Positions 2,857 to 38,116 of a stretch of 64,000 nucleotides of DNA are shown in pieces; the first letter of the stretch is position 1, and the number at the start of each line of letters is the position of its first letter. The DNA is from a virus (lineage: Duplodnaviria > Heunggongvirae > Uroviricota > Caudoviricetes): the IMG/VR virus record IMGVR_UViG_3300028361_000018, one strand, 5' to 3'. The notes under the pieces are model-generated. The model worked only from the letters and a program-made list of their open reading frames with translations. It did not search any database and was not told where the DNA came from. A program made the translations under genes and the position numbers.

Positions 2857-3147
2857 ATGAAACTGGAAACTAAGAAAAAGTACTACACTAAACTATATAA
2901 GTGGGCATACAAAAAGTATAGAGACACACACCTTAGTATGTTCCATAATGACATCAAATGCCCAGGATGTAACGAGTGGATGAGCATATCCGGTATCAAT
3001 CACAAACACTCAAGAGTAGAGCCACAGCCCGAATGGAACAGTCATATACATTGCGGACAGTGCGGCACCGACGCCTATTGGAACTTAGAAGCATTTCCGT
3101 TCCCGGCAAGTTGCGATAGCAAAGGCATGCCATTCCCGGATAAATAA
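2857..3147 (+). CDS. small Cys-rich zinc-ribbon protein
   Basis: Internal ATG at 2857 just after the upstream stop. CPGC ... CGQCG cysteine pairs. Confidence 0.4.
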   Translation: MKLETKKKYYTKLYKWAYKKYRDTHLSMFHNDIKCPGCNEWMSISGINHKHSRVEPQPEWNSHIHCGQCGTDAYWNLEAFPFPASCDSKGMPFPDK

Positions 3148-3175
3148 TACTAGCTAACACAGGAGTATCATTTAC

Positions 3176-9748: not shown

Positions 9749-9788
9749 AGTATACGGTCATAAATAATAGAAACATACAGGATCTATT

Positions 9789-13983: not shown

Positions 13984-14340
13984 ATGAACACAGGCCAAGT
14001 ATATTTTTATTACTATAAACAAAAGTTAGCCGACTGTGTATTCGACTATAAACAAAAGTTAGCCGACTATGTATTCGAACAACAGCGACGCAATAACATC
14101 AAGGAACACGGATACTGCCCGCTACATCTTGTGACCAAGTACAATGTGGCTATTGAAGATGCTGGTCGATATCGTTGGCTACGTGACAGCGGGCACCTTG
14201 ATGCGTTTTGGAGCGTTGATGGTACAGAAGTCCGCTGTGATAACATCGACGTCGAGATTGAAGACGCAATGGCCGAACACGCATTGCATAATATGATGGC
14301 AGACTTAGAAAAAGAAGAGCATGCTCATGACAAAGAGTGA
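13984..14340 (+). CDS. hypothetical protein with internal duplicated YKQKLADxVF segment
   Basis: 118 aa. DNA-level tandem duplication (ctataaacaaaagttagccgact) near the 5' end. Confidence 0.4.
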   Translation: MNTGQVYFYYYKQKLADCVFDYKQKLADYVFEQQRRNNIKEHGYCPLHLVTKYNVAIEDAGRYRWLRDSGHLDAFWSVDGTEVRCDNIDVEIEDAMAEHALHNMMADLEKEEHAHDKE

Positions 14341-16040: not shown

Positions 16041-16439
16041 TTGAACAAGATTCACATAGTTACATATCCTGATAGACTGCACAATGACAGTTACGAAATA
16101 CTCCTAGTTTACCCTAGTCAAAAAGTGTTAGCAGATTTGCAAAACACCGTTCTAGCGCATTACGAAAATAATGCAAACATCTATATATATGACAAAGGAG
16201 TATATGTAAAGGAAGAAATAAATTGGGTGTTAACCACATTAAAATGCGTTGATGTCTGCATTGCAGATATTGATAACACATTACCATTCTTTAAAGACAT
16301 GATGTCTTATATAGTTGCAAAAGATAAAACTTACTGGTTGACTAACGCTGAGGAATCAGTATATAATCATATCAGTAAAAATAGAATATACAACTTAGAG
16401 TTTTTATTACACACCGGAGAAATGAATGAAAAGACATAA
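16041..16439 (+). CDS. hypothetical protein (132 aa)
   Basis: ORF track. Confidence 0.4.
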
Positions 16440-16686
16440 CAAAGCAAGTCAAGAATCACTGATTATCAAGGGGATCAGTGTCGAAGTCCGAAACGGCGAT
16501 GTAAATTTTGCATTACGCAAATTTAAACGTAAAGTGCAAGAAGCTGGACTTTTGCAAGAACTGCGTGATCGCGAGTTCTATACCAAACCTAGTGAAAAAC
16601 GTAAGCGGGCTAAAGCTGCTGCCCGTTCTCGCTGGCTCAAGAAAGAAACCAAGATAGACGAAAACACCAGCCAAGGTAATAGCTAA
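16426..16686 (+). CDS. rpsU: 30S ribosomal protein bS21 homolog
   Basis: 86 aa. [48 protein letters not shown] aligns with E. coli S21 ([47 protein letters not shown]). Confidence 0.8.
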
Positions 16687-16695
16687 GGAAAAACA

Positions 16696-16989
16696 ATGAT
16701 TAACCCAGTACAAGATAGAGTTATTATTAAGCCGTCTAAGCTAGAAGAAAAAACTGCCAGCGGATTAGTTATTGCTGGATCAGTTGATAAAAAAAACGAA
16801 CTCGAACAAGGACAAGTAATAGCGGTCGGCCCAGGGAAAACTACTAGCGGAGGTCAGCTAATTGAGCCGCTAGTAGAAGTGGGTGAGATTGTTGCTTACC
16901 AAAAAGGCACAGGAATAAAGACTAAGATTGATAACGTAGAGTATTTGGTACTTGATGAGCACCAAATACTAGCGGTTATCTTGGAGTAA
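16696..16989 (+). CDS. groS: co-chaperonin GroES
   Basis: 97 aa. MINPVQDRVIIKP...EKTASGLVI.....K.....G.V.AVG.G mobile-loop pattern. Confidence 0.85.
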   Translation: MINPVQDRVIIKPSKLEEKTASGLVIAGSVDKKNELEQGQVIAVGPGKTTSGGQLIEPLVEVGEIVAYQKGTGIKTKIDNVEYLVLDEHQILAVILE

Positions 16990-17070
16990 AGTACAACTAT
17001 ATTTGATAAATAAATGTGGATGCCGCAAGGGTCCACAACAAAGTATCTTGCTTAATAAAGGAGAAATAAT

Positions 17071-17517
17071 ATGACAAGACTACATACCTTAGATTTACCT
17101 TCACTACACAGAGCTTCAATCGGTTTCGACAGACTATTTAATGAGCTAGATCGTTCATTCACTAATAGTCAGTCTCAGGGATATCCTCCATACAACATCT
17201 TGCAGATTAACGAAGACGAATTTATGATCAGTCTTGCAGTTGCCGGGTTCACTATGGATAATTTAGATATCACTAAGGACCGCAATGTGCTAACGATCGA
17301 AGGGGCAATGCCCAAACTTAGCGACGAAAAAACACCAAATTATATACACAAAGGTATTGCAGAGCGTAACTTCCGTAGAGAATTTCGTTTAGCAGAACAC
17401 GTAGATATAGTAGGTGCTAGTCTTGAATTAGGAATGCTCAATGTACACTTACATAGAGATGTTCCAGCAGAGCTACAACCAAGAAAGATTTCAATAACCG
17501 GTCCTGCTAACAAATAG
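17071..17517 (+). CDS. small heat-shock protein (Hsp20/IbpA family)
   Basis: 148 aa. YPPYNI...EDEFMISLAVAGF...L.I......L.IEG alpha-crystallin domain pattern. Confidence 0.8.
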   Translation: MTRLHTLDLPSLHRASIGFDRLFNELDRSFTNSQSQGYPPYNILQINEDEFMISLAVAGFTMDNLDITKDRNVLTIEGAMPKLSDEKTPNYIHKGIAERNFRREFRLAEHVDIVGASLELGMLNVHLHRDVPAELQPRKISITGPANK

Positions 17518-17526
17518 CAGTAAACT

Positions 17527-17555
17527 AGTAGGGGCAGTTAAACTGCCCCTACTAC
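17527..17555 (+). terminator. hairpin terminator-like element after the hsp20 gene
   Basis: TAGTAGGGGCAG-TTAAA-CTGCCCCTACTA 12-bp stem. No strong U-tract, so lower confidence. Confidence 0.4.
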
Positions 17556-17571
17556 TTATAGGAGGAACTTA

Positions 17572-17880
17572 ATGTCCACAAATGCGCAACCAGTCACTGA
17601 CGAAAAGGTTAAGATTAAAAAGAAAACGCCTAACAAGTATAAGGTAATCTTACTAAACGATGATAGTACTCCGATAGATTGGGTTATAGGAATCTTAAAA
17701 GAAATATTTCGTCACACTACGCCTACTGCCGAAGCGTTGACTATGGAAGTGCATAATCAAGGATCAGCCGTAGTAGGAACCTATACTTTTGAAATTGCCG
17801 AAACAAAGATTGCTGAAACAATTAACATTAGCCGAGATAACGGCTTTCCGTTAGTAGCTAAAATAGAAGAGGACAAATGA
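17572..17880 (+). CDS. clpS: ATP-dependent Clp protease adaptor ClpS
   Basis: 102 aa. KYKVILLNDDSTPIDWVIGILKEIF.....A..L...VH..G.AVVG.Y matches the ClpS core. Confidence 0.75.
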   Translation: MSTNAQPVTDEKVKIKKKTPNKYKVILLNDDSTPIDWVIGILKEIFRHTTPTAEALTMEVHNQGSAVVGTYTFEIAETKIAETINISRDNGFPLVAKIEEDK

Positions 17881-18422
17881 ATAATTTAAAAGAATTAACA
17901 TCAGAGCAACACAGAAATGCTGAGAGACAAGCGTTTGTGAAAGAGATGTTCTCTGGAACGATATCTAATGAGCGTTACGCGAAGTTCTTGTTTAATCAGC
18001 ATCCGATATACAACTTATTAGAAACACTTGCTAACATCCATGGGTTGTTTGACGATATGCCGGAGTTGCGCAGAGCTCCAAAAATTCATGAAGACTATCA
18101 GGACTTGATGAAGGGAACTGAAGAACCACCTGTGCTGTTACCGGTCGTAAAAGAATACATGGATTACTTAATGTCTATCTCCGAAGATGCAGATAGACTA
18201 ATGGCGCATGTATACGTCAGGCACATGGGTGACTTATTCGGCGGACAGATGATTTCTAAAAAAGTTCCTGGCCTTGGCAAGATGTACCAGTTTGATCGAG
18301 ATAAGGACGAACTAAAGACCTTAATAAGAGAACGAGTAAACGATAGTATGGCCGACGAGGCAAAGGTATGCTTCGATTTTGCTACTAAGCTGTTCCAACA
18401 GATGAATGAGGCAAAAAAGTGA
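17877..18422 (+). CDS. heme oxygenase-like protein
   Basis: 181 aa. N-terminal L.E.T...H...E...FVK..F.G......Y...L...Y..Y..LE resembles the HO1 proximal helix. Shorter than canonical HO. Upstream of a bilin-reductase gene. Confidence 0.5.
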   Translation: MNNLKELTSEQHRNAERQAFVKEMFSGTISNERYAKFLFNQHPIYNLLETLANIHGLFDDMPELRRAPKIHEDYQDLMKGTEEPPVLLPVVKEYMDYLMSISEDADRLMAHVYVRHMGDLFGGQMISKKVPGLGKMYQFDRDKDELKTLIRERVNDSMADEAKVCFDFATKLFQQMNEAKK

Positions 18423-19111
18423 GCGAAATTTGGACGCAGCTAATTAAATGTAAAGATAACTTTATTTCTGCGTTCGACGAGGTTGCTACAGAAATAGAGG
18501 AGCCAGGGTTGTCTGCGTTTAATCAACCAGAAAATGGGTGGATTAATCGAGTCTGGACCAATGACTACATACGAAGAGCACACATCGACGTAGTAGATGC
18601 TCGCGATGCTAAAGGAATCTGGATGATGCACGTCTGCATCTTTCCGCAACTGCACAATGATGCTCCTATCTTTGGATTCGACGTAATTGCCGGCAAGAAT
18701 AAGATTACTGGGGCATTTCACGATTTCTCTAAAAGTGTTAATTTAGATCATCCTATGATACAGCAATATTTCGACAGTGTTGAAGACTTTGTTCCCAAGA
18801 AGCAACGAGAACTACCGGAATGGGCCACTAACATCTTTACTGACAAAATGTTAGCTGCAAGCAATGTAAAGCAAGAAGAAAGTGCAGACATTATTAGTAT
18901 TGTAGAAGACAATTTAAGATTGTACCTTAACAGAATCACGCAGTACAATCACATGTGTGATACTAACGAATGTCTTAAAGCGCAAAACTATTACTGCACC
19001 AACCAGCAAAAAAACCCACACACTCCCGCAGTAATGAAAAGTTTAGGACTTCCTCCCGAAGAAGTAGATATGTTCTGTAAAGATATGTTGTTTCCTAAAG
19101 TTCAGCAATAG
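18419..19111 (+). CDS. ferredoxin-dependent bilin reductase (PebS/PcyA family)
   Basis: 230 aa. IRRAHIDVVDARD...IWMMHVCIFPQLHNDAPIFGFDVIAG matches the conserved FDBR core (h.h.v.fP....aPifG.D). Confidence 0.6.
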   Translation: MSEIWTQLIKCKDNFISAFDEVATEIEEPGLSAFNQPENGWINRVWTNDYIRRAHIDVVDARDAKGIWMMHVCIFPQLHNDAPIFGFDVIAGKNKITGAFHDFSKSVNLDHPMIQQYFDSVEDFVPKKQRELPEWATNIFTDKMLAASNVKQEESADIISIVEDNLRLYLNRITQYNHMCDTNECLKAQNYYCTNQQKNPHTPAVMKSLGLPPEEVDMFCKDMLFPKVQQ

Positions 19112-19228
19112 TTAAAAGCTATTAGTCTTGCATTGTGTATATAAAAATTAATTAAAAAAAATATCTTGCTCTAGTACTGAATCGACGCTATACTAGCGTT
19201 AACGCATAAAAGAAAAAGTGCGTAAATT

Positions 19229-19444
19229 TTGAACCAACAGGAAACACTAATGTCCGATATAACTACCTACAAAGTTAGTGACATCTTTGAAGACGATAAA
19301 AATGATCCCAACAATGTGTTAATGAATATTCCGCCTGAGGTATCACAGCGAATGGGCTGGATTGAAGGTGACGTTCTAAAAGTAAGCGTCGAAGAAGGAC
19401 GTATTGTATTAACCAAAATCGAAGACCAACCTAAAGAGAGCTAA
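19229..19444 (+). CDS. hypothetical protein (71 aa)
   Basis: ORF track. A candidate TTGCTC-N17-TATACT promoter lies upstream. Confidence 0.35.
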   Translation: MNQQETLMSDITTYKVSDIFEDDKNDPNNVLMNIPPEVSQRMGWIEGDVLKVSVEEGRIVLTKIEDQPKES

Positions 19445-19445
19445 A

Positions 19446-19823
19446 ATGCAAAACTGGAAAGCACCCGCACAACAGGCAGTAGACTACTGGAGCACTCAAG
19501 CCACCGACGTACCTAGTATAGTCAACGGGTTTAACGGAACTTGGGCTATTAGTGATTACAAGTTAATACCATCTTCACTAATGGATTTTGTATCAGAAAT
19601 GTTCTTTAGTTCTACTAAGCTTTCACGTGTTCCTATGAGTGACATTAACAAAGTACTAAATGACGCGTGGGACGGTCCTGGATCTATGCCCAAAATTATC
19701 AACCTTACCTATCAAAGTCGTCGAGCTCGACAGCTGGGACGCCTTAACGACGATGATGCGGAACTAACAGGAAACGATGCTTCTTCGATCGCACATGATC
19801 TTATAATGCCAGTTAAGGACTAA
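19446..19823 (+). CDS. hypothetical protein (125 aa)
   Basis: ORF track. Confidence 0.4.
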   Translation: MQNWKAPAQQAVDYWSTQATDVPSIVNGFNGTWAISDYKLIPSSLMDFVSEMFFSSTKLSRVPMSDINKVLNDAWDGPGSMPKIINLTYQSRRARQLGRLNDDDAELTGNDASSIAHDLIMPVKD

Positions 19824-19826
19824 TTA

Positions 19827-20291
19827 ATGTTGGTCATTGTGATAGGTGGTACTGCGTCACAAAAGCAGCGAGTTACTAGCATGGTTGAGTTCTGTGCTCG
19901 GCAACTAGTACCGAGGTTAACGTCTTTAGAAGTTATTGTAAAACTTATATCAATACCAACGGAAGCGCACGGCTATTGTATGGCTTACACTGACAGTCCT
20001 AGATTAGATCGTCCTCGAGACTTCATAATTGAAGTAGACCGAAGAAACAACCTGCGCCTGGTACTAGAAACTGTTGCCCACGAGATGATACATGTAAAAC
20101 AATACGCCCGAGGAGAATTATACTACAGTCCAATTAAACGCAAGTACAGATGGTGTGGAAAATGGATAAACTATAGAATAAGCTATTGGCAACAACCCTG
20201 GGAAAAAGAAGCTTTCAAAAAAGAGAAAGTATTATTGAGCAGCTGGCTTAAAAAAGAAGGGTTGCAAAACAGAAAGTGGGCTATAGAATAA
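19827..20291 (+). CDS. hypothetical protein with HExxH motif (possible zincin-like metallopeptidase)
   Basis: 154 aa with VAHEMIHVKQY. Confidence 0.4.
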   Translation: MLVIVIGGTASQKQRVTSMVEFCARQLVPRLTSLEVIVKLISIPTEAHGYCMAYTDSPRLDRPRDFIIEVDRRNNLRLVLETVAHEMIHVKQYARGELYYSPIKRKYRWCGKWINYRISYWQQPWEKEAFKKEKVLLSSWLKKEGLQNRKWAIE

Positions 20292-20311
20292 TCTAAAAAT
20301 AGGTACAAGGT

Positions 20312-20464
20312 ATGTCTAAACGCGATAAGAGTAAAGCAAAGTTGTTTAGGGCATGGAAACAACACTTGTCAACTAGTCGATTATCACAGACTGCACAAGT
20401 AAAACGGGCCAAAGAATTTACTAGAAAAGGAATGGAAGTTCCTAGCAACATAATTTATTCTTAA
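20312..20464 (+). CDS. small basic hypothetical ORF (50 aa)
   Basis: ATG..TAA ORF in a 180-bp gap, below the 60-aa track cutoff. Weak RBS. Confidence 0.25.
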   Translation: MSKRDKSKAKLFRAWKQHLSTSRLSQTAQVKRAKEFTRKGMEVPSNIIYS

Positions 20465-20475
20465 GGATTGACACT

Positions 20476-20694
20476 ATGACTAAAGAGAAAACTACTGTTA
20501 CTGATAGCTTAGAAGACGATGATTGGGCGTTGATTATTAATTCAAAAGGAGACCTTAAAGGTGTTTATATTCCCCACGAAGCAGATGAGAAAGATGTGCC
20601 TGAGGCTATTGTAGAGATATTAGAACAATATTATAATATCGACTTCTACGACAATGATGATAATACAGATGAACATCCAAAGACAGTACACTAA
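20476..20694 (+). CDS. acidic hypothetical protein (72 aa)
   Basis: ORF track. Confidence 0.35.
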   Translation: MTKEKTTVTDSLEDDDWALIINSKGDLKGVYIPHEADEKDVPEAIVEILEQYYNIDFYDNDDNTDEHPKTVH

Positions 20695-20954
20695 TGAAAG
20701 ATGATACTAAATCACAGTTAGCTCAACTAACAAAAGAAGAAGCTGTCTTTGCTGATAATATTGACTGGACTATGCTCGGAATGACAAAAGAGCAAGCCAT
20801 CGATCTAATGGCAGACAAGGTTATACATCAGCTTACTAGTATTAACGAAGACGATAGAGCAATTGTTGCAATGGCAACCTTGTGTAAGCTGCTAGTAGAG
20901 AATCTAGCATTCCAAGCTATGCTTGAAAACAAAACTAATTCAACGGAGAAGTGA
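20694..20954 (+). CDS. hypothetical protein (86 aa)
   Basis: ORF track. Confidence 0.35.
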   Translation: MKDDTKSQLAQLTKEEAVFADNIDWTMLGMTKEQAIDLMADKVIHQLTSINEDDRAIVAMATLCKLLVENLAFQAMLENKTNSTEK

Positions 20955-21581
20955 ATGAGTAATCTAGTACCTTTCGTAGTGGAAAGAACAAGCAACGGAG
21001 AAAGGGCCCAAGACATTTTCTCGAGATTGTTGCAGGATCGTATTATTATGATCAACGGTGGAATACATACAGAAATGGCGCACTCGATCGTTGCCCAATT
21101 ATTGTTTTTGGAAGCAGACAACCCCGACAAAGAAATCAGTGTTTACATTAATAGCGGTGGTGGAGAAGTAACTGCTGGACTGGCAATTTACGACACTATG
21201 CAATTTATTAAGAGTGACGTGCGCACTATTGTAATGGGACAGGCCTGTAGCATGGGCAGCTTTTTAGCACAAGCAGGCACAGCAGGCAAGCGAGTAGTAC
21301 TACCGGAATCACGTACAATGATACACCGCGTTAGTTCAGGTACACCGGGTACCAAAGGCAGTATCCACGTACAAGAGCTTGAGTTCGAAGACGCTCGACG
21401 TCACTATGAAGAATCTCGTAAGGTCAATAAGCGCCTTACGGAGCTGTATGTTAAACACAACAGCAAAGAAAAAACTTACGATGAACTTTACGAGTTAATG
21501 AAGTTTGATACTTTCTACAATGCACAGGAAGCAGTTGATGCAGGCCTTGCTGACAAAGTAGTGGAGCGCAAAGATGCTTAA
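20955..21581 (+). CDS. clpP: ATP-dependent Clp protease proteolytic subunit
   Basis: 208 aa. RIIMINGGI...[32 protein letters not shown]...V.T...G.A.SMGS (active Ser) ... H catalytic triad pattern. Confidence 0.85.
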
Positions 21582-21777
21582 TCGCGCGCCAACGCTTTAT
21601 ACACTAACTGATATTGTAGAAGCAGCAGTTGACCCAGAAGTTCTAAGTGAGCACTCAAGTGGACAATGGGTGCCGGCTAGGCGACTAGGTATGTACGGGC
21701 TGCGGAATAGGCTCAAGCTAGCACTTATGGTATTTACTGGAAAAGCCGACGTAGTAATTTGGCCAGGAGAGCAGTGA
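21574..21777 (+). CDS. hypothetical protein (67 aa)
   Basis: ORF track. Confidence 0.3.
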
Positions 21778-23179: not shown

Positions 23180-23528
23180 GTAGATAACATAAACTAACTT
23201 ACGAGCATAAAATATGGTATTTAACCCAGCAATGTTAGGCTCACTGAGCAACAGTGAACTGGCTATCGAGGCCCAGCGTACAGAGAACCTTGATGCTAAC
23301 ACAGTAGCAGAACTAGTCAAGTGATTCGTTGAGATGCTAGATAACGGTACTATACAAGAACACTACGACGAAGATACTCGCGAAGGTCGAAGGAACCACG
23401 ACGAAGACGAAAACGACGACCTGCGTGAAGCAATTCGAGAAGCAATATCTGTGCTATAGGGGGTGTAACACGCCCCCTAGAGATGCACGACTTTTCTATA
23501 TAAATAATAGAACCAGACAGGATCTATT

Positions 23529-25265
23529 ATGAGATATACCGAGTTTAAGTTAAACGAGGGCTTTAAAGAAGTACAACAAAAATTTAGCCAAGAGGCAGAT
23601 CCTACAGAAGTAGCATCTGCCTTCGACGTGTTCAAAAAGCTAGTAAATGCAAATCGTATATCTGGTCAAGAACGCAATATTGATTGGTGGGGCAAACAGG
23701 GGTGGTCTGCATTTGCTGAGTACGTGACAGCCATAGACGAGAGGCCCAGTTCTTCAGAACAAGACAAGCGCACAAAGAAAGGCGAAAGTCACGTATTAGA
23801 AGATTCTAGTCAGTGGTTGATTGTAGTGCCACTAGACAAAGATGCCAGTTGTTTCCATGGTAAGAAAAGCGATTGGTGTACAACCAAACCCACTCGATCA
23901 CATTTCGAACAATACTTTCGTGACAGTAGTATTACGCTAATTTATTTCTTCCGTCAGTTAGATGGAGCCATGTGGGCCATGGCTGTTAGCCCAAATAAAA
24001 GATCAGAATACTTTGATCAACAAGATGAATCGTTGTCGTCTGCTCAATTTAATAAGCAAACAGGCCTAAACAGCAACAAGTACATCGAAATGGTTGGTGG
24101 CAAGACAGAAGTTGGTCAAAAAGCCACTGCTAGTCGAGACGTGATGAAAGCTGACTTGAAGACTCTTCAAGGTTACATTGGAAAGCTGAGACGGATGGGG
24201 AGCCCGCGACGAAGTGCAAAAATTGAAACACTGATGCTGGTTGTTAAAGATCCGACGTCAATAGAAGAATATTTCTATATACTGCATGAAGTCGACGGGC
24301 CGGTAGAAGTAGATCAGCAAGTACAAACTTTAGTTGCTAACTCTGCTGAAGATGCTATCAAATATCTACAAAATGTTAGTGTAAAGACAGTTAAAGTACT
24401 AGAAAGAAACCTACCTCCTAATCAATCAATGAGCAATATGCTACACCCTACTGAACAAGCACTTGCTTATATAGCTAGTAAAGGAGCATTGGCTGCTGCG
24501 TATGCACGTCGAATAATAAAAGGTCCGTGGCCCGAAGCCGAAGCTGCTATTGCGGAAGACGGCCTAGGAGCAGCAATTTATGCACTGGATGTCATTAACA
24601 AAGACAAAGAACAACCAGTTAGGTGGCCACCAGGTGAGGCAGCTATTGCACAAAGCCCTAGAGGATCATTAATATACGCACGTGATGTACTTAACAAGCC
24701 ATGGCCGCCAGGTGAAGCTGCTATTGCAAAAGATGCCGAAACATCTCTAGAATATGCTCGCGAGATAATTAAAGGCAAGTGGCCAGCAGGTGAGGAGACT
24801 ATTGCACAAGACCCTTCTACATCCAGTAGGTATGCTATTGAAGTGCTTAATCAAGGAAAAAATAAAAAAGAAAGATGGCTTCCTGGTGAAGATGCTATTG
24901 CTACTGAATCATTTGCGGCTTATCAGTACGCAAGAATGGTAATAAGAGGACGTTGGAAACCCGGTGAAGATGCTATTGCGCTGGATGGGTACAACGCTGC
25001 AATGTATGCTACTGAAATATTAGAACGTGAGTGGCCAGCAGCCGAATCTGTTATTTCTCAGGACGCTTACGGTGCATTAGTATACGCTCGCGGAATAATC
25101 GAAGGAGAATGGCCCGAAGGAGAAGCTGCTATGGCAACTTTATCTGATGCAGCATACGAGTATGCCATAGACGTACTAGAAGATCAATTCCTAGAAGGTG
25201 AAGATGCAATACGTGCCGACACGTTCTTATGGCCGAAGTATAAACGACGGTTTGGCATCGGTTAA
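23529..25265 (+). CDS. paralogous repeat-family protein 2 (N-domain + ~10 x 26-aa repeats)
   Basis: 578 aa. Same N-domain as the 9789 ORF. C-terminal half is tandem WP(P/E)GEAAIA..D...AY.YAR..I.G units. Ends ...YKRRFGIG like the 27067 ORF. Confidence 0.65.
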   Translation: MRYTEFKLNEGFKEVQQKFSQEADPTEVASAFDVFKKLVNANRISGQERNIDWWGKQGWSAFAEYVTAIDERPSSSEQDKRTKKGESHVLEDSSQWLIVVPLDKDASCFHGKKSDWCTTKPTRSHFEQYFRDSSITLIYFFRQLDGAMWAMAVSPNKRSEYFDQQDESLSSAQFNKQTGLNSNKYIEMVGGKTEVGQKATASRDVMKADLKTLQGYIGKLRRMGSPRRSAKIETLMLVVKDPTSIEEYFYILHEVDGPVEVDQQVQTLVANSAEDAIKYLQNVSVKTVKVLERNLPPNQSMSNMLHPTEQALAYIASKGALAAAYARRIIKGPWPEAEAAIAEDGLGAAIYALDVINKDKEQPVRWPPGEAAIAQSPRGSLIYARDVLNKPWPPGEAAIAKDAETSLEYAREIIKGKWPAGEETIAQDPSTSSRYAIEVLNQGKNKKERWLPGEDAIATESFAAYQYARMVIRGRWKPGEDAIALDGYNAAMYATEILEREWPAAESVISQDAYGALVYARGIIEGEWPEGEAAMATLSDAAYEYAIDVLEDQFLEGEDAIRADTFLWPKYKRRFGIG

Positions 25266-25291
25266 TAGGAATACAAAAATAAAGGACCATT

Positions 25292-27055
25292 ATGAGATAT
25301 CAAGAGTTTAAGCTAAACGAGGGATACAAGGAAGTACAACAGAAGTTCAGTCAAGAAGCAGATCCTACTGAAGTAGCAAGTGCTTTTGACGTGTTCAAAA
25401 AACTAGTAAGTGCTAATCGCATCAAAGGCAACGAACGCAATATTGATTGGTGGGGCAAACAGGGGTGGCCTGCGTTTATTGAATACGTGACCGCCATTGA
25501 TGAACGACCTAGCGAGGCCGAACAAAAAGCTCGAAAAGGCAAAGGTGAAAGTCATGTACTAGAAGAAACTGCCGAGTGGTTTATTGTCGTCCCACTGGAC
25601 AAGGACGCCAGTTGCTTTCACGGTAAAAAAAGCGATTGGTGCACAACTAAGCCAACACAAGGCCATTTCGAATCTTACTTTCGCGACTATGACGTTACAC
25701 TGATCTACTTCTTTCGTCAGTCAGATGGAGCCATGTGGGCTATGGCAGTTTATCCCAATAAAAAAGCAGAGTATTTTGATCAGCAGGATGATTCGCTTGA
25801 TGATGAAGAATTCGAGAAGCAAACAGGTCTGGATCCCAACAAATACACCGAGCTAGTTGGCGGTAAAACTGATGTTGGACAAAAGGCCACTATTAATCGA
25901 GACATCATGAAGACCGACTTTAACACCTTAACAGGTTACATTAAAAAATTAGAACAAATGAGTAACCCACGCCGAAGTGCAAAGATTGAAACCTTACTGT
26001 TGAAAGTTAAAGACTCTAGACTAATAAAAGATTATTTAAGGACACTATATAATTATAGCGGACCAGTGGAGGTAGATCAACAACTACAAAGTCTAGTTGC
26101 TGGCGGTGATGGGGCGGTTGGTATTAGATTTTTGAACAATGTTAGTGTAAAGACAGTTAAAATACTAGGAAGGCAAGAAGATCTCAGGCATATGATGAAA
26201 AACTTGCGGCACCCTTCTAAAGAAGCGATGGAATACATTACCGACACAGGTAGACTAGCAGTCGCATACGCAAGATATGTGATCGAGGGTCAGTGGCCTC
26301 TAGGCGAAGCTGCTATTGCCGCAGATGCACAATCAGCGTTCAGCTATGCTAGAGAAGTAATCAACGACGGTGGTGGGCCTTGGGACGAGAAAGTTAGGTG
26401 GCCGCCCGGCGAAGCTGCTATTGCCACAAATGCAGAAGCAGCCTATATGTATGCTGACCAGATAATTAAAGGCCCCTGGCCCCCGGGAGAAGCTGCTATT
26501 GTTACCGATACACAATCAGCCTATAGATATGCCAGCGCAGTAATCAACAGAAGTACCTTTGGCAACGATCGTGTTAGGTGGCCGCCTGGTGAAGCTGCTA
26601 TTGCACAAGACGCATATACTTCTATTGACTACGCAAGAAATGTCGTAAGAGGCAGATGGCCACAAGGTGAGGCTGCTATTGCCTCAGATGCAGATACGGC
26701 CTATAAGTATGCTCGCGAGATAATTAAAGGAAGGTTTCCAGAAGGAGAAGCTGCTATTGCCCAAGATGCCGAAACAGCTTATAAATATGCTGACCTGATA
26801 ATTAAAGGAAGGTTTCCAGAAGGTGAAGCTGCTATTCTTACAGACGCATATACTTCTATTGACTACGCAAGAAATGTCATAAGAGGCAGATGGCCACAAG
26901 GTGAGGCTGTTATTGCCGCAGAGGCTGCAACTGCGTATGCCTATGCAAAGGATGTGATAAAAGGCAAATGGCCTCCAGGTGAAGCTGCTATTGATAAAGA
27001 TTATGATTTTAGAAGGGCGTATTCAAGCTTTTTAAATCCGATTCGTAACAATTAA
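25292..27055 (+). CDS. paralogous repeat-family protein 3 (N-domain + ~10 x 26-aa repeats)
   Basis: 587 aa. Repeats are nearly perfect, e.g. RWPQGEAAIASDADTAYKYAREIIKG / RFPEGEAAIAQDAETAYKYADLIIKG. 78-bp periodicity is visible in the DNA (gaagctgctattgc recurs). Confidence 0.65.
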   Translation: MRYQEFKLNEGYKEVQQKFSQEADPTEVASAFDVFKKLVSANRIKGNERNIDWWGKQGWPAFIEYVTAIDERPSEAEQKARKGKGESHVLEETAEWFIVVPLDKDASCFHGKKSDWCTTKPTQGHFESYFRDYDVTLIYFFRQSDGAMWAMAVYPNKKAEYFDQQDDSLDDEEFEKQTGLDPNKYTELVGGKTDVGQKATINRDIMKTDFNTLTGYIKKLEQMSNPRRSAKIETLLLKVKDSRLIKDYLRTLYNYSGPVEVDQQLQSLVAGGDGAVGIRFLNNVSVKTVKILGRQEDLRHMMKNLRHPSKEAMEYITDTGRLAVAYARYVIEGQWPLGEAAIAADAQSAFSYAREVINDGGGPWDEKVRWPPGEAAIATNAEAAYMYADQIIKGPWPPGEAAIVTDTQSAYRYASAVINRSTFGNDRVRWPPGEAAIAQDAYTSIDYARNVVRGRWPQGEAAIASDADTAYKYAREIIKGRFPEGEAAIAQDAETAYKYADLIIKGRFPEGEAAILTDAYTSIDYARNVIRGRWPQGEAVIAAEAATAYAYAKDVIKGKWPPGEAAIDKDYDFRRAYSSFLNPIRNN

Positions 27056-27066
27056 CAGGATCTATT

Positions 27067-28377
27067 ATGAGATATAACGAATTTAAACTAAACGAGGGCT
27101 TCAAGGAAGTACAACTGAAGTTTAGTCAGGAAGCAGATCCTACTGAGGTAGCGTCTGCTTTCGACGTGTTCAAAAAGTTGGTCAGTGACAATCGCATCTC
27201 AGGCCAAGAACGAAATATTGATTGGTGGGGCAAACAGGGGTGGTCCGCATTTAGTGAGTACGTGACTGCAATTGATGAAAGACCTAGTTCTTCTGAACAA
27301 AAGATGCGAAAAAACAAAGGCACGAGTCACGTAATAGAGGAATCTGCTGACTGGTTCATTGTAGTGCCACTAGACAAAGACGCCAGTTGTTTCTACGGCA
27401 AAAAAAGTAGCTGGTGTACCACCAAGCCAACGCAAGCACACTTCGAATCGTACTTCCGTGGCAAAGCTATTACACTGATCTATTTCTTCCGTCAGTCAGA
27501 TGGCGCCATGTGGGCTATGGCTGTTGCTCCAAATAAAGGAGCAGAATACTTTAATCAAAAAGACCAATCGCTTGATGTAATTGAATTCAACAAGCAGACA
27601 GGTCTAGACAGCAACAAGTACATTGAGATGGTAGGCGGTAAAACAGAGATAGGTAAAAAAACTGCTGCTAGTCGTAAAGAAATGCGAGCTAGTTTAAAAA
27701 ATCTAAAGGACTTTCTTAAAAAATTAGAACAAATGGATGCTCCGCAACGAAGTGCAAAAATAGAAACAATGATGTTACAGGTTAAGGATCCAAGATTAAT
27801 AGAAGAATATTTTAAAATATTACACAAGCAAAGTGGGCCAGTGGAAATAGATCAACAACTGCAAACTCTTGTTGCTAATATTTCTACTGATGCTGTTAGA
27901 TATTTACAAGACGTTAGTATAAAGACAGTTAAAATAATGGAAAGAAATGCTACGCCTGGTGAAGTAATAAATAATGTCCGAAATCCTACTAAACAAGTAC
28001 TTGCTTATATAGCTAGTAGAGGAGCATTGGCTGTTGCTTATGCTGCTATAGTAATAAAGGGTAGATGGCCTCTGGGCGAAGTTGTAATTGCACAAGATGG
28101 TTATTATGCAGCGTTATACGCCCGAGATATATTAAAACGCGAGTGGCCCGAAGCCGAATCTGCTATTGCCAACAATAGCTCCGGTTCATTTATGTATGCA
28201 CATGCAGTACTCAACAAAGCATGGCCTCCTGGAGAAGCTGCAATTGCCACGCACACTAATTACTCTTTTCGATATGCTACAGAAGTACTAGAAGATCGAT
28301 TTTTAAAAGGAGAGAATGCAATACGTAAAGCACAATCGGCGTGGAATGCATACAAAAAACGGTTTGGCATCGGTTAA
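27067..28377 (+). CDS. paralogous repeat-family protein 4 (N-domain + ~5 repeats)
   Basis: 436 aa. Same N-domain. C-terminus ...AYKKRFGIG. Confidence 0.65.
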   Translation: MRYNEFKLNEGFKEVQLKFSQEADPTEVASAFDVFKKLVSDNRISGQERNIDWWGKQGWSAFSEYVTAIDERPSSSEQKMRKNKGTSHVIEESADWFIVVPLDKDASCFYGKKSSWCTTKPTQAHFESYFRGKAITLIYFFRQSDGAMWAMAVAPNKGAEYFNQKDQSLDVIEFNKQTGLDSNKYIEMVGGKTEIGKKTAASRKEMRASLKNLKDFLKKLEQMDAPQRSAKIETMMLQVKDPRLIEEYFKILHKQSGPVEIDQQLQTLVANISTDAVRYLQDVSIKTVKIMERNATPGEVINNVRNPTKQVLAYIASRGALAVAYAAIVIKGRWPLGEVVIAQDGYYAALYARDILKREWPEAESAIANNSSGSFMYAHAVLNKAWPPGEAAIATHTNYSFRYATEVLEDRFLKGENAIRKAQSAWNAYKKRFGIG

Positions 28378-28403
28378 TAGGCATACAAAAATAAAGGACC
28401 AGT

Positions 28404-29594
28404 ATGAGATATAACGAGTTTAAATTAACCGAAGGTTACAAGGAAGTACAACAGAAGTTTAGCCAGGAGGCGGATCCTACAGAGGTAGCAAGTGCTTTTG
28501 ATATCTTCAAAAAATTAGTAAGTGCCAATCGCATCTCAGGTCAAGAAAGAAATATTGATTGGTGGGGCAAACAGGGATGGTCTGCATTTACTGAATACGT
28601 AACAGCCATTGACGAACGCCCTAGCTCTTCAGAACAAAAAGCTCGCACTAAAAAAGGAAATAGCTACGTATTAGAAGAAACTGACGAGTGGCTAATTGTA
28701 GTACCATTGGACAAGGACGCCAGTTGCTTTCACGGCAAGAACAGTGATTGGTGCACAACCAAACCCACTCAAAACCATTTTGAACAATACTTTCGTGACT
28801 TCAGCGTTACATTAATCTATTTCTTTCGTCAGTCAGATGGTGCTATGTGGGCCATGACAGTTAGTACAAAGAAAGGGCCAGAGTATTTTGACCAGCAAGA
28901 TACATCATTATCTATGGAAGAATTCAATCAACAAACAGGACTAGACAGCAACAAGTACGCCGAACTAGTCGGAGGAGAAACTGAGGTTGGCCAACAAGCC
29001 ACTGCTAGTCGAGACGTAATGAAAGCCGACTTAGAGAATCTAAAAAGTCTTATTGAAAAATTAGTACAAATGGATGCTCCGCGGCGCAGTGCAAAAATTG
29101 AAACAATGCTGTTGAGGGTTAAGGACGCAAAGTCAATAAAAAGATATTTAATAATACTATATCAAGCCAACGGTCTAGTCGAATTAGATCAACAACTACA
29201 AACTCTAGTTGCTACAAATGTAACGGGATCTATTAAATATTTGAAAGGTGTCACTGCAAAGACAATTAAACAACTAGAACAAAATAATGAAGACGAAGAT
29301 GAAGATGAAGATGGACCCAACTACGAAATATTCGGGGATTTACAAGACCTTACCAAAGAAGCGCTTGCTTATATAGCTAGCAAAAGCTATTTGTCCCTTG
29401 CGTATGCACTTCACGTAGTCGACGGTACGTGGCCACCGGGCGAGGCAGCTATTGCAAAAGATCCAGACATATCTTTAGAATACGCACAGAATGTAATTGG
29501 CGGAAGATTCCCTGCAGGTGAAGCTGCTATGACTAGTGACGAAAATATTAAGCGGTTGTATAAACTTACAATACTTAATCATGAAACAAGTTAA
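28404..29594 (+). CDS. paralogous repeat-family protein 5 (N-domain + 2-3 repeats, EDEDEDED linker)
   Basis: 396 aa. Same N-domain (DKDASCFHGKNSDWCTTKPT). Fewer repeats. Confidence 0.65.
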   Translation: MRYNEFKLTEGYKEVQQKFSQEADPTEVASAFDIFKKLVSANRISGQERNIDWWGKQGWSAFTEYVTAIDERPSSSEQKARTKKGNSYVLEETDEWLIVVPLDKDASCFHGKNSDWCTTKPTQNHFEQYFRDFSVTLIYFFRQSDGAMWAMTVSTKKGPEYFDQQDTSLSMEEFNQQTGLDSNKYAELVGGETEVGQQATASRDVMKADLENLKSLIEKLVQMDAPRRSAKIETMLLRVKDAKSIKRYLIILYQANGLVELDQQLQTLVATNVTGSIKYLKGVTAKTIKQLEQNNEDEDEDEDGPNYEIFGDLQDLTKEALAYIASKSYLSLAYALHVVDGTWPPGEAAIAKDPDISLEYAQNVIGGRFPAGEAAMTSDENIKRLYKLTILNHETS

Positions 29595-29630: not shown

Positions 29631-29659
29631 TTGACATCTAGGTCCGTTGACTACATAAT
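29631..29659 (+). promoter_or_regulatory. sigma70-like promoter TTGACA-N17-CATAAT
   Basis: TTGACA 29631-29636, CATAAT 29654-29659. Confidence 0.4.
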
Positions 29660-35772: not shown

Positions 35773-36624
35773 ATGAGATTAGACGCCCTTTCAGCAATCG
35801 ACTTTTACAAAGCAGATCACAGACGCCAGTACCCAGAAGGTACTGAGCTAGTCTACAGCAACTTTACACCACGCAGTATGCGCCTGTACAAAGGCAACGC
35901 TACTGAGACTGTAGTGTTCGGACTACAGGGATTCTGCAAATGGTTCCTCATTGATATGTGGAACGAAACTTTCTTCAACAAGCCAAAGGCAGAAGTTGTA
36001 GCCAAGTATCAAAGAAGACTTGACTCTAGCTTAGGTGACGGCGCTGTGCCAATGGATCACGTCGAAGCATTACACGACTTGGGCTATTTGCCTTTAGAGA
36101 TTAAAGGTCTGCCAGAAGGCGTAAGTGTGCCGGAAAAAGTAGCTGTTCTTACAGTCAAGAATACAGTACCAGAGTTTTACTGGCTGGTTAACTACATTGA
36201 AAGCGTGATGAGCTCAGAGCTGTGGAAGCCAAGCGTAGTTGCTACGCTCGCAAAAGAGTATCGCGAAATACTTACAAAGTATGCTAATCTAACTGGCGCA
36301 TCACTCGATGGCGTTCCTATTCAGTGTCACGACTTTAGCTTCCGGGGAATGAGTGGACTACACGATTCCGCAAGCTCAGGGGCCGGGCACTTGCTGTCCT
36401 TTGTGGGCACAGACGGTGTTCCATCAATTGACTATTTAGAAGAGTACTACAACGCAGATCCAGCTAAAGAAATGATTGGGTGTAGCATTCCTGCAACCGA
36501 ACATTCGGTCATGAGCTGTAACGTAGGAAACTTATCTAAGTTAATCGGCGAGCAGCTGGAAGAAAATCCCAACCTAAGTCTCGAAGACGCGCACCGACGT
36601 GTTCTTCAGATAGCCAAGGGTTAG
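35773..36624 (+). CDS. nadV: nicotinamide phosphoribosyltransferase (NAMPT/NadV), N-terminal fragment
   Basis: 283 aa. DFYKADHRRQYP, SFRGMS, GHLLSFVGTDGV...IPATEHSVMS align with the N-terminal ~330 residues of NAMPT (FKGTDTV...VPAAEHST). The ORF then runs into unrelated sequence and overlaps the antisense HNH gene. Confidence 0.75.
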   Translation: MRLDALSAIDFYKADHRRQYPEGTELVYSNFTPRSMRLYKGNATETVVFGLQGFCKWFLIDMWNETFFNKPKAEVVAKYQRRLDSSLGDGAVPMDHVEALHDLGYLPLEIKGLPEGVSVPEKVAVLTVKNTVPEFYWLVNYIESVMSSELWKPSVVATLAKEYREILTKYANLTGASLDGVPIQCHDFSFRGMSGLHDSASSGAGHLLSFVGTDGVPSIDYLEEYYNADPAKEMIGCSIPATEHSVMSCNVGNLSKLIGEQLEENPNLSLEDAHRRVLQIAKG

Positions 36625-37261
36625 TTAACATTTGCTTAGTAACAATCCTGTCAGGATTTGAGCAAAAGTTGCGCACTGTTCCGGCGGTATAAGGAGTGCT
36701 TCGGGCTGCTTGCGGAGCAGACCCGAAAGTTCCTTTAGGGGTTACATAGTGCCCCTTAAAGTTAGCATTCCTTTCAGGATGCGCAAGTTTTGTATTTCTT
36801 ATCTTGTCGACAACGTCAGGTGTTCTTGGTATGTTATATAAGTGAGATTCTTTACCACCTTTATGAGGGTTGTTAGTTTTAATAAGTTGTCTAATAATAT
36901 TAATGTGCTCAGGCGATAGTGTTTTTCCAGAATGTAAGTTAGAATTAGCAATAGCAAATTGCTCTTTAGCAGTCTGAAATGTTCGAGAAGTAATTTTGTA
37001 GTATCGTTGAACATCACCGTTAAGTTGATTGTTCATTGCCCAGAAAGCAAATTTTAGTTTATCAGATTCTGGATATATCTTACAAAGCATCCTGTGACAT
37101 ATAAAATGTACACGAGCAGACAAGTATACTAAATTAGTAGAACAGTTGGTTCCGCCGATCGACTTAGGAACAATATGGTGCCTTTCAGAATAAACGTCTT
37201 TTGGCTTGACACGTTGCCCAAACTGTGCTATTATAGCGTTATAAGTTTTTATGTAATTCAT
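36536..37261 (-). CDS. HNH homing endonuclease inserted in the NAMPT gene (antisense orientation)
   Basis: 241 aa, - strand. ERHHIVPKSIGGTNCSTNLVYLSARVHFICH is an HNH core shared with the 7571 and 49150 ORFs. Lies exactly in the gap between the two NAMPT fragments. Confidence 0.7.
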   Translation of the reverse strand: MNYIKTYNAIIAQFGQRVKPKDVYSERHHIVPKSIGGTNCSTNLVYLSARVHFICHRMLCKIYPESDKLKFAFWAMNNQLNGDVQRYYKITSRTFQTAKEQFAIANSNLHSGKTLSPEHINIIRQLIKTNNPHKGGKESHLYNIPRTPDVVDKIRNTKLAHPERNANFKGHYVTPKGTFGSAPQAARSTPYTAGTVRNFCSNPDRIVTKQMLTNPWLSEEHVGARLRDLGWDFLPAARRLT

Positions 37262-37306
37262 TATTTTACACTCCGTTATGTGTATTTATACAAAAAAGGA
37301 AATTTT

Positions 37307-38116
37307 ATGTCGTATACCGAAAAAGAAATCATGAACTACTGCGAGCAGGAACTGTTTCGGCACTTGGTCGAAGACCTGTATCCAACAGGGCTTGTATCTA
37401 TTGTTAGTGACACGTGGGACTTTTGGACTGTGGTTACTGAGTATATTCCTGCGCTCAAAGACGTTATTATGGCTCGCCAACCAAACGCCATTGGCCTTAA
37501 CAAGGTAGTGTTGCGTCCAGACAGCGGAGACCCTGTAAAGATCATCACAGGCTACACTGAAGACGAATATTACATCGAAGAAGACGGTGAGCTCATTAGC
37601 TACAAGGACGGTATCACACTGTCTCCTGCAGAAGTCAAAGGCGCTATCGAATGCCTGTGGGACACTTTTGGTGGTACGCTAACCGACTGTGGTTATAGAG
37701 AATTAGACGAGCATATTGGCTTAATCTATGGCGATAGCATTACGCTAGAACGCGCACACGCAATTCTACGCAGACTGGCAGACAAAGGCTTTGCTAGCAG
37801 CAACGTTGTTCTTGGAGTGGGGTCATACACTTACCAGCACAACACACGCGACAGCATGGGGTTTGCAATGAAGGCAACCTATGGTGAGGTCAACGGAGTA
37901 GGACGTGAAATCTTTAAAGACCCAGCAACAGACAGCGGCACAAAGAAGAGTGCTAAAGGTTTGTTACGTGTTGATCTAGTAGACGGAGAATACGTAATGC
38001 AAGACCAAGTAACGTGGGCTGAAGAAGCAGGCGGTGAGCTAAAGACTGTGTTTAAGGACAGCAAGCTCTACAACCAAACCAGCTTGGGTGAGATCAGGCA
38101 GCGTATACAGGGTTAA
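37307..38116 (+). CDS. nadV: nicotinamide phosphoribosyltransferase (NAMPT/NadV), C-terminal fragment
   Basis: Track ORF 37175-38116. ATG 37307 with AAGGA RBS. TEKEIMNYCEQ...VSIVSDTWD...LRPDSGDP...KGLLRV align with NAMPT residues ~330-490 (HEKDAFEH...VSVVSDSYD...IRPDSGNP...KGRL). Confidence 0.75.
   Translation: MSYTEKEIMNYCEQELFRHLVEDLYPTGLVSIVSDTWDFWTVVTEYIPALKDVIMARQPNAIGLNKVVLRPDSGDPVKIITGYTEDEYYIEEDGELISYKDGITLSPAEVKGAIECLWDTFGGTLTDCGYRELDEHIGLIYGDSITLERAHAILRRLADKGFASSNVVLGVGSYTYQHNTRDSMGFAMKATYGEVNGVGREIFKDPATDSGTKKSAKGLLRVDLVDGEYVMQDQVTWAEEAGGELKTVFKDSKLYNQTSLGEIRQRIQG

Follow-up and report, generated by a model that had tools for sequence, protein, structure and literature searches.

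A diverged family of solenoid repeat proteins as candidate ejected capsid proteins of a large, probably T4-related phage

The analysed window, a 64-kb stretch of phage DNA, carries five paralogous genes that probably encode internal capsid proteins of a large T4-related phage, a reading to which we give a probability of roughly 0.55. The leaders of these proteins resemble the capsid-loading tag of T4, so the proteins are probably delivered into the host together with the DNA. From the features described below we infer packaging, cleavage, ejection and target binding, in the following order. The genes would be transcribed late from T4-type (T)ATAAATA promoters, and residues 1-10 (M-R-Y-x-E-F-K-L-x-E) would serve as a capsid targeting sequence that docks each protein on the prohead scaffolding core. 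A T4-type prohead protease (Peptidase_S77, gp21 type) would then cleave behind (L/I)-x-E, leaving a mature protein that begins at G11, is enclosed in the head alongside the DNA and enters the host on infection. The conserved N-domain would provide a common activity or docking function, while the C-terminal 26-aa two-helix solenoid, with its conserved framework and variable surface positions, would bind a target. Rapid change in the number of paralogues and repeats may generate a varied set of binders, perhaps directed against host defence or takeover targets, as with T4 IPI*.

Five diverged paralogues and their N-domain

The five ORFs were all confirmed and lie on the plus strand, four of them as a tandem array at 23529-29594:

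23529-25265, +: paralogue 1, 578 aa; leader at 23529-23558 (MRYTEFKLNE), N-domain and helical linker, 9-unit 26-aa repeat solenoid from 24528
25292-27055, +: paralogue 2, 587 aa; leader at 25292-25321, 9 repeat units from 26294
27067-28377, +: paralogue 3, 436 aa; leader at 27067-27096, 4 repeat units from 28066
28404-29594, +: paralogue 4, 396 aa; leader at 28404-28433, 2 repeat units from 29430
9789-11207, +: paralogue 5, 472 aa; leader at 9789-9818, 5 repeat units from 10791

A shared N-terminal region of about 300 aa was recovered as described in the original prediction, together with its motifs WGKQGW, DKDASCFHGK.SDWCTTKPT and IYFFRQSDGAMWAMAV, but the term "near-identical" overstated the likeness: over codons 1-270, paralogue pairs are 70-78% identical in amino acids and 74-80% in nucleotides. 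With dS values of 0.7-1.5 and dN/dS ratios of 0.11-0.21 over the same codons, the five paralogues are diverged genes under purifying selection, and this degree of DNA identity and dS rules out assembly duplication, the artefact that might have produced identical copies. Paralogue 4 carries an acidic EDEDEDED insert and is identical to a database protein (P0007). Paralogue 5, whose gene lies immediately downstream of nrdB, is identical to another (P0002), and a third protein (P0001) shows 76% identity to paralogue 5 and has one additional repeat unit.

The N-domain belongs to a family of 5089 cluster representatives found in phages only, mostly on large contigs, and absent from 185,579 bacterial or archaeal genomes (GTDB species genomes), prophages included. 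Two phage orthologous groups, phrog_17056 (E = 5e-35 to 4e-40) and phrog_28193 (E = 1e-28 to 6e-36), match all five proteins directly in the N-domain, and both are annotated "unknown function". Searches against Pfam, NCBIfam and solved folds returned no match for the domain, which agrees with the earlier judgement that it fits no well-characterised family, and a literature search turned up neither work on the family nor any account of a targeting leader in Rak2- or SCTP-2-like phages. The description of a multi-copy, length-variable phage family is thus supported. In AlphaFold models, the strongly conserved N-domain holds a small beta-sheet core within an otherwise alpha-helical architecture, and the C-termini across the family are highly variable, with GH19, GYF_2, ankyrin and DUF4116 modules among them.

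Eight residues (D52, W54, K56, S107, C108, G111, W116 and C117) are invariant in the largest alignment, and four of these (W54, G111, W116 and C117) in all family alignments made. With this in its favour, it is conceivable, if highly unlikely, that the N-domain is an enzyme, possibly PcfJ-related, that uses the two invariant cysteines and relies on the repeats to recruit its substrate, whether packaged or not. The models suggest that C108 and C117 should oppose each other across a beta-hairpin, and Foldseek against viral models gives PcfJ-like proteins at probabilities of 0.90-0.97. The PcfJ link was nevertheless set aside: the corresponding E values are weak (0.02-0.06), HMMER detects no PcfJ (PF14284) match in the family, and hhalign against pCF10 PcfJ yields an unsupportive probability of 0.4.

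The N-terminal leader and its protease junction

All five paralogues start with MRY(Q/T/N)EFKL(N/T)E|G(Y/F)KE, in which the first 10 residues form a leader that ends in the T4 prohead-protease motif (L/I)-x-E. In the T4 record, ipII and ipIII start with MKTYQEFIAE|A and ipI with MKTFKEF...ITE|A; the first 10 residues of IPIII are a targeting sequence, and gp21 cleaves after L/I-X-E (PMC9026906). The window leader MRYQEFKLNE resembles T4 MKTYQEFIAE, although 10 residues are too few for a statistic by themselves.

The junction is conserved across the whole family, with (L/I)-x-E retained in about 96% of its members. Of 128 members, 124 have leucine or isoleucine three residues before the junction, as do 104 of 109 sequences in an independent set of 50%-identity representatives. 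The leader is mostly 9-12 residues long (one member begins MRVTEFIAE|GYKEV), and the domain begins at residue 1 in nearly all of the best 150 of the 5089 representatives. In the models, residues 1-10 have a mean pLDDT of 58, against 96 for residues 11-20. Furthermore, the leader motif occurs on 27 ORFs that flank family genes but fall outside the family model, and at none of 5459 internal methionines; the non-family proteins that bear it include a GH19 muramidase, three Amidoligase_2 proteins, a DUF6267 protein and a DUF6321 protein. Leader, junction and T4 likeness therefore point to proteins packaged inside the capsid. The conservation of E10-G11-Y12 could instead reflect capping of the first helix of the fold. 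In T4, an aspartate at position 10 prevents processing. The original prediction had overlooked the 10-residue leader, its (L/I)-x-E junction and the likeness to the T4 targeting sequence.

The parallel with T4 IPI, IPII and IPIII comprises a 10-residue leader with an E-F core and an (L/I)-x-E end, the sharing of that leader by otherwise unrelated proteins of the phage, a link to T4-type head genes and an S77 protease (here in related loci), variable accessory loci and late-type promoter boxes. There are also differences. At 400-590 aa, the proteins are far above the T4 internal proteins in size, which counts against packaging; the predicted mature forms would be 5 to 7 times larger than their T4 counterparts and combine a domain of roughly 300 aa with an alpha-solenoid. 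They are mostly acidic, are encoded in paralogue arrays and share no sequence similarity with the T4 proteins except in the leader. A second parallel is found in the giant phages phiKZ, 201phi2-1 and SPN3US, where a gp21-related protease processes large head-packaged paralogues after glutamate (PMC9026906). These inner-body and ejection families resemble the present one in comprising several large paralogues, packaged in the head there and proposed to be so here; they differ in their S/A-x-E motif and their Chimalliviridae lineage, and no homology to the window proteins was detected.

Genomic setting, promoter boxes and copy number

Within the window, the five genes are surrounded by same-strand genes for nucleotide metabolism and accessory functions and have no head genes beside them, a setting that counts against packaging. 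No portal, S77 protease or gp23 genes were found in the 64-kb window and an upstream extension of about 10 kb, and extension beyond the window in both directions reached no head genes. The T4-like nature of the phage is indicated indirectly by the relatives of the family, by the promoter boxes and by an exonuclease whose best matches are Rak2-like jumbo phages. This setting would suit proteins for host takeover or anti-defence that act in the cytoplasm and never enter the capsid, their N-terminal conservation reflecting folding, translation initiation or a recombination cassette. A sigma-70-like promoter about 350 nt upstream of paralogue 1 and the lack of head genes near the family gene at most loci are in line with such proteins. 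We consider this explanation unlikely, since it leaves unaccounted for the identical leader on unrelated proteins and the conserved junction, as well as three observations presented below: late-promoter boxes enriched before leader genes, several relatives within a head module, and a homologue annotated as virion-associated from mass spectrometry.

Two types of upstream sequence were confirmed, as originally noted. The first, acaggatctattATG, precedes the three genes at 23529, 27067 and 9789; the second, ...ggtttggcatcggttaatagg.atacaaaaataaaggacca.tATG, precedes the two at 25292 and 28404. The associated upstream features are:

23499-23512, +: T4-type late-promoter-like box TATAAATAATAGAA, 29 nt upstream of the paralogue 1 start codon
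9760-9772, +: same box, ATAAATAATAGAA, 29 nt upstream of the paralogue 5 start codon
25266-25291, +: 26-nt junction spacer, with preceding ...RFGIG* codons, before paralogue 2; recurs at 28378-28403
28378-28403, +: second copy of the junction spacer, before paralogue 4

The box is present only for paralogues 1 and 5, which counts against the favoured reading. Near-copies of the paralogue 5 box stand 42 and 36 nt before the genes at 736 and 3176, both of virion-gene appearance; a tail-fibre-like gene and a gene whose product is homologous to a virion structural protein are likewise preceded by near-copies of the box in the window. Plain TATAAATA shows no overall enrichment in the window (6 occurrences against 5.4 expected) and is informative only by its placement relative to gene starts. 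When placement is considered, 26 of 56 leader ORFs have ATAAATA in the 70 nt before their start, compared with 93 of 772 other ORFs (Fisher p = 1.7e-9).

Several relatives of the family gene sit inside a head-gene module. In one related contig (L005), the gene order is Portal_T4 (4e-108), a 70-aa leader ORF, the family gene, a gp67-like acidic protein and Peptidase_S77 (8e-23), followed by a scaffold-like protein and Gp23 (5e-103). L006, L007 and L010 share this head-module order and L017 has a similar one; Peptidase_S77 and gp23-type capsid genes are present in all five. In T4 itself, genes 67 and 68 occupy the position held by the family gene in L005. This position, with the portal gene on one side and the gp67-like and protease genes on the other in L005 and L010, also raises the possibility of an accessory role in the prohead core or scaffold, like that of T4 gp67 and gp68. 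The proteins would then assist in constructing a large capsid or setting its size, and would be lost at maturation by degradation or expulsion rather than work in the host. The strong conservation of the N-domain fits a scaffold, and leader and cleavage motif suit core proteins equally (PMC9026906). A scaffold is nonetheless fairly unlikely in light of the family's variability: copy number differs between near-identical phages, C-termini are highly variable across the family, close relatives differ in repeat number, and the surface positions of the repeats are hypervariable, all of them traits of dispensable, fast-evolving cargo rather than of an assembly scaffold.

The copy-number difference is seen in a related phage (L051), which has 2 copies at the same site against 4 here, within flanks of 85-99% identical DNA. 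Paralogues 2 and 4 are absent from L051, and the spacer type preceding them marks the site of the extra copies. The L051 orthologue of paralogue 3 shows 93% DNA identity overall and also aligns with the 5' part of the 25292-27055 gene. The repeated duplication and exchange proposed earlier is therefore real, and a 2-versus-4 difference between near-identical phages denotes a fast-evolving locus, as expected of genes in phage-host conflict.

Additional evidence comes from phage PA5oct, for which a prohead scaffold/protease has been reported. Its protein EST35_0205 is a distant family homologue (HMM E = 1e-9, Foldseek E = 1.4e-4) annotated as "structural protein, ESI-MS/MS". The PA5oct virion proteome comprises 93 proteins; because seven of them are classed as virion-unrelated enzymes, it may include contaminants, and EST35_0205 is a very distant member of the family. 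Presence in a virion, together with variable copy number and length, might also be expected of external proteins involved in host range, adhesion or decoration, and the original prediction had named host range and surface binding as candidate roles. Nothing points there: the window proteins have no fibre-like domains and no signal peptide, and in the models they are alpha-helical apart from the small N-domain sheet, with no fibre, beta-helix or Ig-like domains. Moreover, the leader and protease motif are typical of head-internal proteins, and it is portal, protease and capsid genes, not tail genes, to which the relatives are linked. An external location is accordingly very improbable. The anti-defence role that had also been put forward is possible, the argument being one of analogy with the T4 internal protein IPI*.

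The repeat array and a possible capsid-loading code

The C-terminal repeat described at the outset proved to be a 26-residue, copy-variable unit with the consensus W-P-x-G-E-A-A-I-A...Y-A. W/F-P-x-G/A-E unit starts number 9, 9, 4, 2 and 5 in paralogues 1-5. Most successive starts are separated by 26 residues; three or four intervals are longer, at 32-35 residues. Within the unit, positions 1, 2, 4-9, 15, 18, 19, 22, 23 and 25 are conserved and the others variable, among them the surface positions 10-14, 16, 17, 20, 21 and 24. The AlphaFold model of the repeats is a two-helix solenoid (pLDDT 93.8), in line with the helical-repeat resemblance noted earlier. Recurrence at the DNA level also stood: allowing at most 2 mismatches, the five genes contain 22 plus-strand occurrences of GAAGCTGCTATTGC, where chance would give 0.56. 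The proposed change of copy number by slippage held only in part. Repeat units are on average just 55% identical in DNA (maximum 85%), and Tandem Repeats Finder reports one 2.3-copy stretch only, at 26660-26836; therefore, simple slippage is plausible only in the 25292-27055 gene. That gene contains a recent internal duplication, its units at aa 430 and 508 sharing 85% DNA identity. HTH_35 (PF13693) scored 25.2 bits against paralogue 1 (cut-off 25) and 22-24.5 bits against the other four, with partial profile coverage throughout; this match is likely an artefact of the repeats, the model showing a repeat solenoid and no winged helix.

There was some ground for the resemblance to DUF4116 suggested originally, since PF13475 (DUF4116) follows the same N-domain in 31 of 82 relatives, but it did not extend to the window's own repeats: with a limit as loose as E <= 1, HMMER listed PF13475 for none of the five proteins, and hhalign of repeat-unit profiles gave a probability of 0.2, so that identity with DUF4116 was rejected. 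A relationship is plausible only from the architecture of the relatives, whose 22-aa two-helix repeats follow the same N-domain, and the window repeat has a comparable ...A-x-x-Y-A... helix pattern and solenoid architecture. It differs in its 26-residue period and its W-P-x-G-E turn.

Proteins injected with phage DNA act ahead of any phage gene expression and are therefore a first line against host defences; to our knowledge, they are almost unknown outside T4, P22, T7, N4 and the phiKZ group. Should the leader prove to be a capsid targeting sequence, sequence alone would suffice to list the proteins packaged by uncultured T4-related phages, a family of more than 5000 clusters now without annotation would gain a cellular location, and a natural tag and a modular solenoid scaffold would become available for engineered phage-head cargo. 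More speculatively, M-[RK]-x-x-E-F-(I/L)-x-E might be a general capsid-loading code throughout a large branch of T4-related marine and jumbo phages, most of them uncultured. The solenoid arrays would then form a diversifying library of injected binders that neutralise targets in host defence or takeover, a counterpart to the effector families of repeat proteins in intracellular bacteria. Under such a code, the injected protein set, including the solenoid family with its thousands of clusters, amidoligases and GH19 lysozymes, would be readable from sequence. Near-identical DNA was absent from 50,697 phage records, and tblastn returned Salicola phage SCTP-2 as its only match; in that phage, the non-family genes 47 and 36 carry a local variant of the leader.

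Diverged paralogues with a predicted solenoid

The paralogue family in the window is a real and distinctive feature. All five ORFs are found on the plus strand where the original prediction placed them:

23529-25265, +, paralogue 1, 578 aa
25292-27055, +, paralogue 2, 587 aa
27067-28377, +, paralogue 3, 436 aa
28404-29594, +, paralogue 4, 396 aa
9789-11207, +, paralogue 5, 472 aa, apart from the tandem array of paralogues 1-4

The proteins align without gaps across ~270 residues and carry every motif originally quoted, and the two upstream junction types match their description. Over codons 1-270, pairs are 70-78% identical in protein and 74-80% in DNA, with dS of 0.7-1.5 and dN/dS of 0.11-0.21, the latter answering the proposed check in favor of selected duplicates. 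These values rule out assembly artefacts; the paralogues are old duplicates under selection.

The C-termini of paralogues 1, 2, 3, 4 and 5 contain 9, 9, 4, 2 and 5 W/F-P-x-G/A-E units, respectively, with starts mostly spaced by exactly 26 residues. The framework (W1, P2, G4, E5, A6, A7, I8, A9, A/S15, Y18, A19, V/I22, I/L23, and G25) is conserved, while positions 10-14, 16-17, 20-21, and 24 vary. At the DNA level, GAAGCTGCTATTGC occurs 22 times within the genes at up to two mismatches, against 0.56 expected. Mean DNA identity between units is only 55%, and recent internal duplication is confined to paralogue 2 (units 85% identical in DNA). The W-P-x-G-E repeat is also present in at least 70 metagenomic proteins without the N-domain.

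Paralogue 5 was modeled with AlphaFold from an input of 82 homologues, with very high confidence (pLDDT 93.8, pTM 0.87). The model comprises a helical bundle (residues 12-79), a small beta-sheet core with invariant S107-C108 and W116-C117 (87-162), and a helical linker (171-330). Each 26-aa unit is predicted to form one two-helix hairpin, the hairpins stacking into the solenoid for which the original prediction had proposed modeling. The leader is the sole low-confidence part, with a pLDDT of 58 versus 96 in the next ten residues.

A phage family with varied C-termini

The N-domain profile, run against 1.84 billion representatives, hits 5089 clusters at an E-value cut-off of 1e-3; tightening it to 1e-10 leaves 1085, and to 1e-30, 309. 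Nearly all of the 150 top-ranked representatives have the domain right at their N-terminus, from residue 1. None of the 185,579 species genomes searched, bacterial or archaeal, encodes a member. Among 50,697 phage records, the only direct match is Salicola phage SCTP-2 (440 kb), several of its six copies standing in tandem; the PA5oct group is a distant match. A literature search found no paper describing the family, or the leader outside T4-type phages.

DUF4116 repeats end 31/82 and 19/85 members; other C-termini include the W-P-x-G-E repeat, a GH19 muramidase, four GYF_2 domains, and ankyrin repeats. The suggested likeness to DUF4116 is thus reasonable as an architecture, since relatives carry these repeats, but the window proteins themselves fall outside DUF4116 in a membership test. 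In comparison locus L017 (6889-8568), an N-domain-only ORF stands between two DUF4116-only ORFs, and this separate encoding suggests that the modules can work as separate chains. A link between the family and PcfJ was tested against the pCF10 protein and rejected; in pCF10 (L053 15874-17984), pcfJ directly adjoins a gene whose annotation is Cas9 inhibitor of the AcrIIA9 family.

Leader, promoters and proposed role

Paralogues 1-5 all start MRY(Q/T/N)EFKL(N/T)E and continue with G(Y/F)KE. In the T4 record, ipII and ipIII start MKTYQEFIAE↓A and ipI starts MKTFKEF...ITE↓A (↓, putative cleavage site). In T4 IPIII, residues 1-10 serve as the capsid targeting sequence; cleavage by gp21, the prohead protease, follows L/I-X-E (PMC9026906; PMC3012670). 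Across 128 family members, the N-terminus follows M-[RK]-[YFL]-x-[ED]-[FIL]...[LI]-x-E↓G-Y-K-E. L or I occupies the third residue before the putative cut in 124/128 (104/109 in a second, independent set of 50%-identity representatives), and the leader spans 9-12 residues in 115/128.

The same leader occurs on 27 ORFs outside the family model that adjoin family genes on IMG/VR contigs, and at 0/5459 internal methionines. Pfam matches of ten such ORFs include GH19 muramidase, three Amidoligase_2, DUF6267, and DUF6321. SCTP-2 likewise has its own leader variant common to family and non-family genes. What defines the T4 targeting sequence is that unrelated proteins carry it as a short leader, and the leader described here shares this property. 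The family is best filed as putative internal proteins whose capsid targeting sequence is of the T4 type; in this case the proteins are large, with a predicted solenoid, and are encoded in paralogue arrays.

Several further genes bear such leaders. SCTP-2 gene 47 (L001 5015-6316), inside the paralogue array and unrelated to the family, has the local leader MKVKQITE↓A and a HEMVH motif, which hints at a zinc metalloprotease. In the window, a 249-aa protein (736-1485) matching phrog_14154 ('virion structural protein') starts MNIREFSKPKTAKTLNE↓S; because this resembles the longer T4 IPI-type leader, it may be a further capsid-targeted protein. A 67-aa ORF (76-279) starting MRLNELVGE↓F fits a relaxed motif.

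In several relatives, gene order places the family gene within the head module. In L005 (also L006, L007, and L010), Portal_T4 (4e-108) is followed by a 70-aa leader ORF, the family gene, a gp67-like acidic protein, Peptidase_S77 (8e-23), a coiled-coil scaffold-like protein, and Gp23 (5e-103); in T4, genes 67 and 68 occupy the slot of the family gene. The N-domain-only and DUF4116-only ORFs of L017 lie just after protease, scaffold, and capsid genes. The distant member EST35_0205 of PA5oct starts MKLFEVFTLYE↓D, and its annotation, structural protein, derives from ESI-MS/MS.

The T4 late-promoter consensus is TATAAATA. Upstream of the start codons of paralogues 1 and 5, at 29 nt, lie TATAAATAATAGAA and CATAAATAATAGAA, respectively, and near-copies (ATAAATAATAC.A) precede genes starting at 3176 and 736. 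The box ATAAATAATA(C/G)(A/T)A stands 29-42 nt from the start codon at all four sites:

694-706, box upstream of the 'virion structural protein' PHROG homologue
3140-3152, box upstream of the tail-fibre-like protein
9760-9772, box upstream of paralogue 5
23500-23512, box upstream of paralogue 1

This box is a candidate late promoter of the window phage. ATAAATA occurs 17 times on the plus strand of the window and twice on the minus strand; over all loci, it lies within 70 nt upstream of 26/56 leader ORFs versus 93/772 others (p = 1.7e-9). Dense clusters of leader genes in large phage contigs (L027 890-13243, L026 8497-15893, L019 5078-12268) join the same leader to differing products (Amidoligase_2, GH19, a four-domain GYF_2 fusion, repeat proteins), with an ATAAATA box ~25 nt upstream of many. 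No plus-strand terminator-like site was found inside the four-gene array, which suggests a single transcription unit. A near-consensus sigma-70-type promoter (TTGACA, 17 nt, CATAAT; 11/12 matches) lies at 29631-29659, directly after the paralogue 4 stop.

A cytoplasmic role without packaging would not account for why unrelated proteins share the leader, why the junction is conserved, why promoter boxes are biased toward leader ORFs, or why relatives lie in the head module. The surface or host-range role originally proposed, that of an external adhesin, finds no support.

Copy number also changes. A related phage (L051), with flanks 85-99% identical in DNA, has just two copies where the window has its array: an orthologue of paralogue 1 and one of paralogue 3, the second of which also aligns to the 5' part of paralogue 2. 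The extra copies in the window, paralogues 2 and 4, have a common upstream junction. Paralogue 5 and its closest relative, P0001 (76% identity), differ in repeat number, P0001 having one extra 26-aa unit. Against the main rival, a purely morphogenetic role in the prohead core, stand dispensability, this copy-number change, and the variable C-termini. The best-supported reading is that the paralogues would be expressed late, directed into the capsid, cut by the prohead protease, and ejected into the host, combining a conserved N-domain with a variable solenoid that would bind a target.

Gene content of the window

The window encodes nrdA, nrdB, chaperone and Clp, pigment, and NAD-salvage genes, and the best matches of its exonuclease lie in Rak2-like jumbo phages. 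No head genes lie within it, so that the T4-like nature of its phage is one we infer. An auxiliary cluster (~16400-21600; Pfam assignments made on the identical locus L002) adds ribosomal protein S21, Cpn10, Hsp20, and ClpS to the last three genes listed:

5304-7556, nrdA
7571-8626, free-standing HNH/NUMOD3 homing endonuclease gene, between nrdA and nrdB
8639-9748, nrdB
17877-18422, heme oxygenase
18419-19111, ferredoxin-dependent bilin reductase
20955-21581, ClpP-like protease

The related phage L051 has a shorter ClpP with a GIY-YIG endonuclease ORF beside it. The gene for nicotinamide phosphoribosyltransferase seems to be divided between an N-terminal (35773-36624) and a C-terminal (37175-38116) ORF, with a 241-aa minus-strand ORF (36536-37261) overlapping the gap; insertion of an intron or homing element could account for this, as could a frameshift. 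At 14012-14078, a 33-nt unit is duplicated in tandem, to all appearances perfectly (2.0 copies, 97% matches).
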